Origin: a virus
Lineage: Duplodnaviria; Heunggongvirae; Uroviricota; Caudoviricetes
IMG/VR virus record: IMGVR_UViG_2703718854_000002
Length of the DNA stretch: 9,238 bases
Strand: one strand, 5' to 3'
The translations under genes were made by a program, and so were the position numbers. Numbering within the stretch: the first letter of the stretch is position 1; each line of letters opens with the position of its first letter. Below, piece after piece: positions 8,562 to 9,238 of this stretch. Under the pieces are notes generated by a model. That model was not told the origin of the DNA and ran no database searches. It saw only the letters and a list, made by a program, of their open reading frames with translations.

Positions 8562-8637
8562 TAGAAAAATCAGTCAATTCTGAGAAGGCAGAAGTTTAGC
8601 ACCAACAGACAACTTGATCGACTATCAGAATAAGATG

Positions 8638-8657
8638 TACTGTATATGCATACAGTA
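8638..8657. promoter_or_regulatory. LexA (SOS) box TACTGTATATGCATACAGTA
   Basis: CTGT-N8-ACAG with AT-rich spacer, a near-perfect match to the 20-bp LexA consensus taCTGTatatatataCAGta. Lies 20 bp upstream of the ATG at 8677 and about 77 bp upstream of the divergent gtrA start. Confidence 0.75.
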
Positions 8658-8676
8658 TGCATTTTGAGGTGACAAC

Positions 8677-8916
8677 ATGCCGCGTCGTTCAGATATTGAG
8701 ATCGCCTTCAGGGCCTCTATTGTGCATGAAAGGTCAGGCCGCAGGATTGTGAAAACTGCTGATTTTGTTAAGGAACTACTAAAGGTTAACTGGGAGCTCA
8801 GCATGGAAGAGGCTAATCAATGGATAGCCAGATACACCACCTGCTTCAAAGACATCACTCCCGATCACGGGGAGAACAAGACCTGGTTCATGTACAACCC
8901 GAATGGAGGGCTTTGA
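8677..8916 (+). CDS. Small hypothetical protein, first gene of a LexA-box-controlled bicistron
   Basis: 79 aa, no motif I recognise. SD GAGGTG 5 nt upstream of ATG. Its stop (8914-8916) is 1 nt before the downstream ATG, and the downstream SD (GGAGGG 8905-8910) lies inside its 3' end. Confidence 0.5.
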   Translation: MPRRSDIEIAFRASIVHERSGRRIVKTADFVKELLKVNWELSMEEANQWIARYTTCFKDITPDHGENKTWFMYNPNGGL

Positions 8917-8917
8917 T

Positions 8918-9238
8918 ATGGGGTTCCCAAGTCCAGCAAGGGATTACATCGAAAGTAAGCTTAATGTGAATGTTATATGCGGAGTCACCACTAACAGCCT
9001 GGTGATTGAGACATCGCAAGGATTTGCTGTGATAGAAAAGGGCATGAAGCCATCGCCAGACAGTACCTACCTGATTTCGTATTCAGGAGGTTGTCACTTT
9101 GCCAAACGTAGAGGCGATGCGCTGATAACGATAGATGGTGAAGTACTTGAAGGAGAGGTTCTGGATGAGGTGGATGTGAAGGGCATTCTGACGCATCTCA
9201 TTAACCGAGCAGTGGATGACGATAATCCTGCAATCTGA
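8918..9238 (+). CDS. UmuD'-like (HumD-like) protein; N-terminus M-GFPSPARDY resembles the processed N-terminus of UmuD'
   Basis: Favoured start ATG 8918 (GGAGGG SD, 7-nt spacer); the ORF track uses the in-frame ATG at 8903. GFPSPARDYIESKLN matches UmuD GFPSPAADYVEQRIDLN, and STYLISYSGGCH tentatively aligns to UmuD ATYFVKASGDSM, putting Cys at the nucleophile Ser position. The protein is shorter than UmuD' and its C-terminal ~45 residues do not obviously match. Stop TGA is at the window end (9236-9238). Confidence 0.45.
   Translation: MGFPSPARDYIESKLNVNVICGVTTNSLVIETSQGFAVIEKGMKPSPDSTYLISYSGGCHFAKRRGDALITIDGEVLEGEVLDEVDVKGILTHLINRAVDDDNPAI

Follow-up and report, generated by a model that had tools for sequence, protein, structure and literature searches.

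Predicted SOS-timed prophage cassette encoding a short, pre-processed UmuD′/HumD-like protein without protease residues, often behind a winged-helix gene

Orphan phage genes for a UmuD′ that is made directly in its processed form have been known since HumD of phage P1, and to our knowledge nobody can say why phages carry them. According to the annotation of the P1 record HumD functionally complements UmuD′, and PMC11541004 cites McLenigan et al. 1999 for this protein. RecA-dependent processing of UmuD is slow (PMC5342242), and the main binding site for UmuD′ is UmuC's C-terminal tail (PMC6511836). Here, we describe a cassette that has much in common with these genes, found in a stretch of 9,238 nucleotides from a virus of the Caudoviricetes (IMG/VR virus record IMGVR_UViG_2703718854_000002). 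This whole stretch is called the window below, and the cassette fills its final 677 bases. It consists of two genes, here named gene A and gene B, behind a LexA (SOS) box. An original prediction, made from the letters of the window, had proposed an SOS-controlled pair of genes encoding a small protein of unclear nature and a UmuD′-like protein that needs no processing and has Cys in place of the catalytic Ser.

Gene B (positions 8918-9238, plus strand) encodes a protein of 106 amino acids which, judged by its sequence, is homologous to UmuD and phage HumD and has the UmuD′/S24 fold. It matches the profile PHROG 3469 ('UmuD-like protein', phrog_3469) over its full length (E 5.1e-41, residues 1-105 on profile positions 1-105 of 106), and a 24-member family profile could be aligned by hhalign with UmuD and four HumD-type proteins over the whole length (probability 98.5%, E 1.6e-15). 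An AlphaFold (AF2) model built on the same family alignment has the S24 C-terminal beta-fold, at a predicted local distance difference test (pLDDT) score of 71 and with the tail and part of the N-terminal arm disordered. Profile homology and model together therefore establish the homology and the fold. The statement of the original prediction that the protein is shorter than UmuD′ held, as gene B lacks about 20 residues of UmuD′ and HumD. The identity to Escherichia coli UmuD′ is about 18% overall, and the NCBIfam models for HumD and UmuD match the first 23-43 residues of gene B only, far below their cut-offs.

Megablast of the cassette against phage genomes gave no match, and finding the relatives there therefore needed a search at the protein level. 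The family is widespread. It was found in at least 434 viral contigs, a separate search gave 289 clusters at the 50% identity level, and its carriers include mEp390, phiES15 and many Klebsiella and Enterobacter phages. The comparisons below were made with 85 gene B loci, of which 80 were taken from the at least 434 confirmed IMG/VR contigs, the others being annotated phages and E. coli genomes. Some longer members (P0048, P0053, P0113, P0084, P0077 and P0133) were considered as carriers of a UmuD-like cleavable leader, and this was rejected. P0084 (187 amino acids) is a fusion of gene A and gene B, the middle of which is an apparently frameshifted gene A, and P0048, P0053 and P0113 have unrelated N-terminal extensions that resemble mis-called starts, as do the extensions of P0077 and P0133.

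The N-terminal arm of gene B, GFPSPARDYIESKLN (8921-8965, plus strand), is equivalent to UmuD′ residues 25-39. As predicted, a UmuD′-like start follows the initial Met: gene B starts MGFPSPARDY, which leaves GFPSPARDY to compare with GFPSPAADY at the N-terminus of UmuD′. Aligned in this way, gene B begins where RecA-mediated cleavage gives UmuD its new N-terminus. M1, F3, P4 and Y10 are invariant in the family, with G2, S5, P6 and D9 nearly so, and 70 of the 85 loci have the start MGFPSPA, the start of the HumD family, which has no cleavable leader. The arm is one of the two most conserved segments, the other being LITxDGExxEG, which is specific to the family and has no counterpart in UmuD′. 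The conserved start codon is ATG 8918. An upstream ATG at 8903 was rejected as the start of gene B, all relatives beginning with MGFPSP or a close variant. In six loci without gene A (L012, L013, L016, L017, L019 and L022) gene B starts ATGAGC (MSGFPSP...), which would leave the mature protein with one N-terminal residue more than UmuD′ has.

At the other end of the protein there is an acidic tail, DDDNPAI (9215-9235, plus strand; pLDDT <50 for residues 100-106). Nearly all family members end with an acidic stretch, a Pro and one or two hydrophobic residues, other examples being DDELPVI, DEDIPVM, DDDLPV and SDDYPF. This tail is common to the short family and the HumD group (..GEFDDCPVI), where it is found in P1 humD (L007), N15 gp26 (L008) and HK639 (L009), and UmuD is without it. 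It resembles the tip of E. coli SSB, ..MDFDDDIPF, except that in most family tails the Pro is more distant from the C-terminus by one residue. The tail may be a docking motif.

The protease site of UmuD is missing from gene B. The Ser60 loop of UmuD, SGDSMIDGGI(S), is deleted (9-11 residues) in alignments made with HMMER, MAFFT and hhalign. In all three, Lys97 of UmuD stands opposite Ala62 of gene B, a residue that is invariant in the close family, this assignment being alignment-dependent to within one residue, and Lys98 stands opposite Lys63, where most of the family has K or R. Neither the Ser nucleophile (Ser60) nor the Lys general base (Lys97) of the S24 family is thus present. The original prediction had read Cys59, which sits in SGGC and looks superficially like SGDS, as a Ser-to-Cys change at the nucleophile position. 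As a replacement nucleophile Cys59 was rejected: it aligns with Phe94 of UmuD, and the position varies between C, R, S, I, N and T in the family. With the Ser60 loop deleted and Lys97 replaced by Ala, the protease site has therefore been lost altogether instead of being a Ser-to-Cys variant, and gene B is predicted to be catalytically dead. Such a loss would suit a protein that has no need of self-cleavage. In the MAFFT alignment an intermediate decay of the catalytic residues is seen among HumD-type proteins: both Ser and Lys are still there in P1 HumD, the Ser60 position is occupied by Thr in N15 and HK639, and the HumD-type proteins of HK639 and locus L003 have lost the Lys.

The LexA box TACTGTATATGCATACAGTA (8638-8657, no strand assigned) lies upstream of gene A, and it differs from TACTG(TA)5CAGTA by two mismatches, both in the variable centre. 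It is the single match in the window and 200 shuffles gave none, in agreement with the near-consensus box that had been predicted directly upstream of the genes. A probable -35 element, TTGATC (8614-8619, plus strand, read from the sequence), is found 18 nt upstream of TACTGT (8638-8643), the first six bases of the box, and TACTGT thus falls at the expected -10 position and is the probable -10 element. TTGATC, 17-18 nt and TACTGT in the LexA box follow one another likewise in the control region of E. coli umuDC and in many related loci. In many loci an upstream ATTGATAGGC-like element (ATTGATAG..) precedes TTGATC; the window is without this element. The E. coli umuDC upstream region (L006 1-267) has the promoter layout of the phage cassettes (window 8562-8676), and this shared layout suggests that promoter and gene were acquired together. 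A generic promoter scan made no call at the cassette promoter, because TACTGT matches TATAAT at three positions only; the assignment of the promoter to 8614-8643 is therefore made by analogy, and is probable. The 115-nt intergenic region must also hold the promoter of the divergent gtrA-gtrB-gtrC operon, with 77 nt between the gtrA start codon and the LexA box. A second CTGT-N8-ACAG match, CTGTACGCAGATACAG (4383-4398), lies inside the tail-fibre gene, has poor flanks and a poor centre, and is probably due to chance.

The box argues for membership in the SOS regulon also by its conservation, in addition to its closeness to consensus and its place at the promoter. A LexA box with at most 5 mismatches is found at the equivalent position in 82 of the 85 loci, despite about 50% protein divergence. 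Gene A stands directly upstream of gene B in 46 of the loci and is absent in 39. With gene A, the box precedes that gene and stands about 280 nt ahead of gene B (44 of 46 loci), and without gene A it is about 40 nt before gene B (box present in 38 of 39 loci), except in L020 and L027, where it is about 290-340 nt upstream. A box about 40 nt before the gene is also found in P1 humD, N15 gene 26 and HK639. Two loci (L002 and L003) have degenerate boxes with one change in the CAG arm, and one (L055) has no box.

Gene A (8677-8916, plus strand) has a Shine-Dalgarno-like GAGG (8666-8669, plus strand) 7 nt before its ATG at 8677, and the Shine-Dalgarno sequence of gene B, GGAGG (8905-8909, plus strand), lies inside the 3' end of gene A. 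As the original prediction had it, the two genes are 1 nt apart, with T8917 between 8677-8916 and 8918-9238. In all 46 loci with both genes the distance from the gene A stop to the gene B start is -1, +1 or +2 nt, and this constancy indicates translational coupling. The ratio of nonsynonymous to synonymous substitution (dN/dS) is about 0.1 for both genes, measured against relatives at dS 0.1-0.9, which corresponds to purifying selection on both. Gene B identity is 55% between the groups with and without gene A and 59-63% within them. The gene B sequences are thus not split by the presence of gene A, and there is no sign of obligate co-evolution. Since gene A is missing from about half of the loci and occurs alone in phage HK225, it is an optional add-on to the cassette, inserted between the SOS promoter and gene B.

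The surroundings of the cassette are also informative. When the flanks retrieved for the 85 loci, each of about 4 kb or more, were searched by tblastn with E. coli UmuC, none was found to hold a umuC-like gene. This confirms what had been predicted from the window, and in L001, the closest E. coli relative, the attachment site (att) follows. In the complete phages mEp390 and Flotzy the cassette has the tail-fibre genes on one side and attP/int on the other. A divergent DinI-family gene (Pfam DinI, 1e-21) is found upstream of the cassette in 16 loci, at 4409-4675 in L004 (mEp390), at 3395-3661 in L005 and in 14 further loci; as dinI is divergent from the cassette, one LexA box probably serves both. 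In 3 loci, L003 among them, the gene after gene B, or after the HumD-like gene in its place, encodes an SOS-response-associated peptidase. DNA-damage genes are gathered near att in the carrier phages.

The 79-amino-acid product of gene A matches PHROG 3893 (phrog_3893), a PHROG of unknown function, and has no credible match in Pfam or NCBIfam. Its AlphaFold model is confident (pLDDT 86), and the order a1-b1-a2-a3-b2-b3 is that of a winged helix, so that gene A on this model is a small stand-alone winged-helix protein. A profile search found 711 clusters, nearly all of 79 amino acids, in Enterobacterales. Fold searches gave generic winged-helix matches only, and the sole significant match in a viral structure library was a protein of 99 amino acids with 39% identity, taken to be HK225 gp28 by that length and identity. 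Counted from the sequence, gene A has about 12 basic and about 11 acidic residues; it is thus roughly charge-neutral, and the charge is no guide to DNA binding. The original prediction had compared the gene pair with impC-impA of plasmid imp operons, but gene A was rejected as an ImpC/DinI homologue: it has a winged-helix fold, neither Pfam nor fold comparison gave a DinI match, and a true dinI is the divergent gene upstream in 16 related loci. The analogy with an lxr-humD bicistron of P1 fared no better. P1 lxr encodes 190 amino acids and is divergent from humD, no co-transcribed upstream Lxr homologue was found, and P1 was not among the 40 listed of the 48 records matched by gene A in tblastn. 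Gene A as an Lxr homologue was thus rejected as well.

RefSeq and UniRef name the 79-amino-acid protein of L001-L003 'DNA polymerase V', a name for which no basis was found and which looks like a propagated annotation error. In mEp390 (L004) the open reading frame (ORF) of gene A is present at 4762-5001, with a LexA box at about 4720-4739, and is unannotated; what the record annotates instead is an ORF of 129 nt, 4795-4923, on the other strand. Gene A homologues without gene B are found beside a DNA invertase gene in HK225 (L091 2790-3697) and in L073 (2422-2739), the latter copy being fused in frame to an apparent resolvase/invertase fragment, and these contexts suggest rearrangement scars. 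In L003 (6002-6626) gene A (91% identical) is followed by a 127-amino-acid HumD-family gene and there is no 106-amino-acid form; gene A can therefore partner either type of protein.

The most economical interpretation is that gene B is a LexA-timed, pre-processed surrogate for UmuD′ that works with the UmuC of the host, in effect a minimal HumD. In undamaged cells LexA would sit on the box that overlaps the probable -10 TACTGT and keep the operon off, and upon DNA damage LexA would cleave itself and the operon would be transcribed. Methionine aminopeptidase removes Met before Gly, and the removal of Met1 is expected because Gly follows it, so that the product would begin GFPSP... like mature UmuD′. 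Gene B could then dimerise via the retained helix and the C-terminal strand, and its conserved arm would engage the host partners of UmuD′, above all UmuC. The outcome would be an immediate lesion bypass of the DNA polymerase V (Pol V) type that does not wait for the slow RecA-dependent processing of UmuD, as reported for P1 HumD, and damaged DNA of the prophage or the host would profit by being replicated faster in the course of induction. This interpretation draws on the homology, tail, regulation and genome position shared with HumD, on the conserved and unique LexA box with its umuDC-like promoter layout, on the loss of the catalytic residues, on two genes that are under purifying selection and stay intact in decayed prophages, and on the damage genes in the neighbourhood (divergent dinI in 16 loci, the SOS-response-associated peptidase in 3).

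Several observations weigh against it. Pfam gave no match to gene B up to E 10, so that PF00717 is not recognised, whereas P1 HumD and the HumD-like protein of L003 pass its gathering score; and with the HumD model NF051876 gene B reaches 26.9 bits, over residues 1-23 only, the cut-off being 120 bits. The function of the 106-amino-acid family is anchored experimentally by P1 HumD only. The missing residues of UmuD′/HumD, about 20 in number, include the whole active-site loop, and the partner surfaces may have changed. The AF2 model of gene B (pLDDT 71) is of moderate confidence, LITxDGExxEG and the acidic tail have no UmuD′ counterpart and hint at other partners, and a surrogate for UmuD′ leaves the role of gene A unexplained. 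The deletion and the family-specific motifs thus leave room for another role, and the confidence in a UmuD′ surrogate is for that reason only moderate, at about an even chance.

One such role is that of a negative modulator. With its catalytic loop gone and its arm and dimer elements kept, gene B could be a dead mimic of UmuD′ that heterodimerises with UmuD or UmuD′, or that sits on the RecA filament or on UmuC. In this way mutagenesis by Pol V, the replication checkpoint of UmuD2C or the co-protease activity of RecA would be damped, and the SOS response would be tuned during induction alongside phage DinI, whose divergent gene shares the LexA box in 16 loci. UmuD products bind many partners, among them RecA, alpha, beta, epsilon, DinB, Lon and ClpXP (PMC5342242), and it would suit a decoy that no polymerase gene is linked and that the family-specific motifs are absent from UmuD′. 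However, P1 HumD, the nearest characterised relative, is reported as a positive substitute for UmuD′, no sequence feature indicates inhibition, and we consider a decoy of this kind unlikely, if still a serious candidate. Another view takes gene B not to be a Pol V subunit but an SOS-timed decoy or adaptor that docks host proteins of the SSB interactome and/or RecA filaments. With the protease core shed, the partner-binding arm of UmuD′ and the SSB-tip-like tail (DDDNPAI, compared with ..EFDDCPVI in HumD and ..DFDDDIPF in E. coli SSB) would serve to redirect host replication and repair proteins for the induced prophage, and gene A would target DNA or a protein; this docking role is improbable in our estimate.

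Two further explanations concern an antirepressor and a split regulator. The original prediction had named an antirepressor as an option. Gene B or gene A would then bind the prophage repressor at its C-terminal S24 domain and inactivate it. There is precedent in the LexA-controlled antirepressors of the Gifsy phages, 186 (Tum) and N15 (AntC), and small, dinI-linked genes under LexA control outside the immunity region are a hallmark of the Gifsy and 186 loci (PMC3121763). This option has become very unlikely: the one carrier phage checked, mEp390, has a helix-turn-helix plus Peptidase_S24 repressor of the self-cleaving type and so would have no need for an antirepressor, and HK225, which has gene A only, has the same type. 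Gene B is moreover specifically UmuD′/HumD-like, including the UmuD-specific GFPSPAxDY arm, and the cassette stays intact in prophage remnants that have no immunity region. Genes A and B could also associate non-covalently into an SOS-induced DNA-binding regulator, a LexA-like protein in two pieces, as a winged helix plus an S24 domain is the domain make-up of LexA, both folds are predicted here and the genes are coupled. A pair of a small protein and a UmuD homologue, DdrR-UmuDAb, regulates the damage response in Acinetobacter, according to published abstracts. But about half of the loci are without gene A and show no systematic change in gene B, and gene A also occurs without gene B (HK225) and is roughly charge-neutral, which leaves a split regulator with hardly any probability.

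A literature search found no study of the 106-amino-acid UmuD-like family. Its resemblance to UmuD is already known: 'UmuD-like' is the label of the family in databases, and a similarity to HumD is noted in the mEp390 record. What appears to be undescribed is that the nucleophile loop is deleted, that the short family and HumD have the acidic tail in common, that the promoter is umuDC-like and that a winged-helix gene is coupled to gene B. The short family can be seen as a natural deletion experiment on what selection retains of a UmuD′ that has no more use for self-cleavage: it holds on to the arm at the N-terminus and the elements of the dimer, and the acidic tail is new. If gene B activates host UmuC, enterobacterial pathogens with prophages of this type would undergo more damage-induced mutagenesis when exposed to antibiotics that induce the SOS response. 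If gene B blocks functions of UmuD/UmuC or RecA instead, it would be a new phage-encoded SOS modulator.

The window itself is a segment of the E. coli chromosome with a strongly decayed prophage behind tRNA-Ser(CGA) (892-981), which follows mtfA (1-837, minus strand). The prophage has lost most structural genes and all immunity genes. The remnant contains an integrase gene (1097-1777) that lacks the N-terminal arm-binding part and runs at its upstream end into a gene for a GH19 endolysin (1731-2261). It further contains an HNH gene and, of a tail fibre, the C-terminal part only, which has a Peptidase_S74 chaperone domain. What is intact is the SOS cassette and a minus-strand block of O-antigen modification genes, which consists of an Acyl_transf_3 gene (4809-5795), a gene for a GtrII-type glucosyltransferase (5859-7295), gtrB (7270-8202) and gtrA (8199-8561). 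Locus L002 is a comparable remnant in which the cassette is also intact. In L001 (90% identical) a 3' fragment of tRNA-Ser, which is the att duplicate, lies about 130 nt past the gene B stop, and yodB lies beyond it. This answers, by way of L001, what the original prediction had asked about the sequence past 9238: the prophage ends, with the att copy and then yodB. The carrier is best explained as a lambdoid prophage, and the cassette as a LexA-repressed accessory ('moron') unit at its attachment-site end. PADLOC found no match to a defence system. The remnant also encodes a Cys-rich protein of 177 amino acids (3076-3609, minus strand) that matches CxxCxxCC (YkgJ-like) at a borderline level, and in L003 a fragment of the YkgJ family adjoins the prophage.

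Compared with E. coli UmuD′, the S24-type subunit of Pol V, gene B has a nearly identical arm, GFPSPAxDY(V/I)E, and the LexA-controlled promoter layout of umuDC is that of the cassette. However, UmuD′ arises by RecA-mediated cleavage and has umuC adjacent, whereas gene B would be made directly and has no adjacent umuC, and it differs from UmuD′ also by the absence of the Ser/Lys dyad and by its extra acidic tail. The imp, muc and rum plasmid operons (impCAB) are, like the cassette, SOS-controlled copies of UmuD function on mobile elements. They have a polymerase gene (impB/mucB-like), whereas the cassette has none and thus is not an operon of the umuDC/impCAB type. ImpC is DinI-like, whereas the upstream gene of the cassette encodes a predicted winged-helix protein, and the UmuD-like protein is pre-processed and protease-dead, unlike that of impCAB. 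Phages related to the cassette carriers do link the gene with a DinI-like gene, which recalls the imp operons; tblastn from phage DinI toward plasmid impC returned phage-like DinI genes only. The antirepressor loci of Gifsy, 186 and N15 are likewise small LexA-repressed genes outside the immunity region and associated with dinI (PMC3121763), but they encode different proteins and follow the replication genes, whereas the cassette is next to att.

The closest system is the HumD group itself (P1 HumD, N15 gp26, phiKO2, HK639 'UmuD'; NF051876). Like gene B, these proteins are phage-borne and pre-processed with the start MGFPSPA, their genes have a LexA box just upstream and no linked umuC, and the homology to gene B extends over the full length and includes the acidic C-terminal tail ..DDxPVI. 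The N15 gp26 and HK639 UmuD genes even have the same position, after a tail-fibre gene and next to att. The differences lie in size and in partners: HumD has 127-129 amino acids and gene B 106, the latter having lost further segments besides the Ser60 loop of 9-11 residues. Ser and Lys are retained in P1 HumD, whereas gene B has Ala for Lys97, and gene B often stands behind the winged-helix gene A, whereas P1 has the divergent and unrelated lxr. The cassette is thus a common variant of the idea already seen in P1 HumD, and not a new kind of system.

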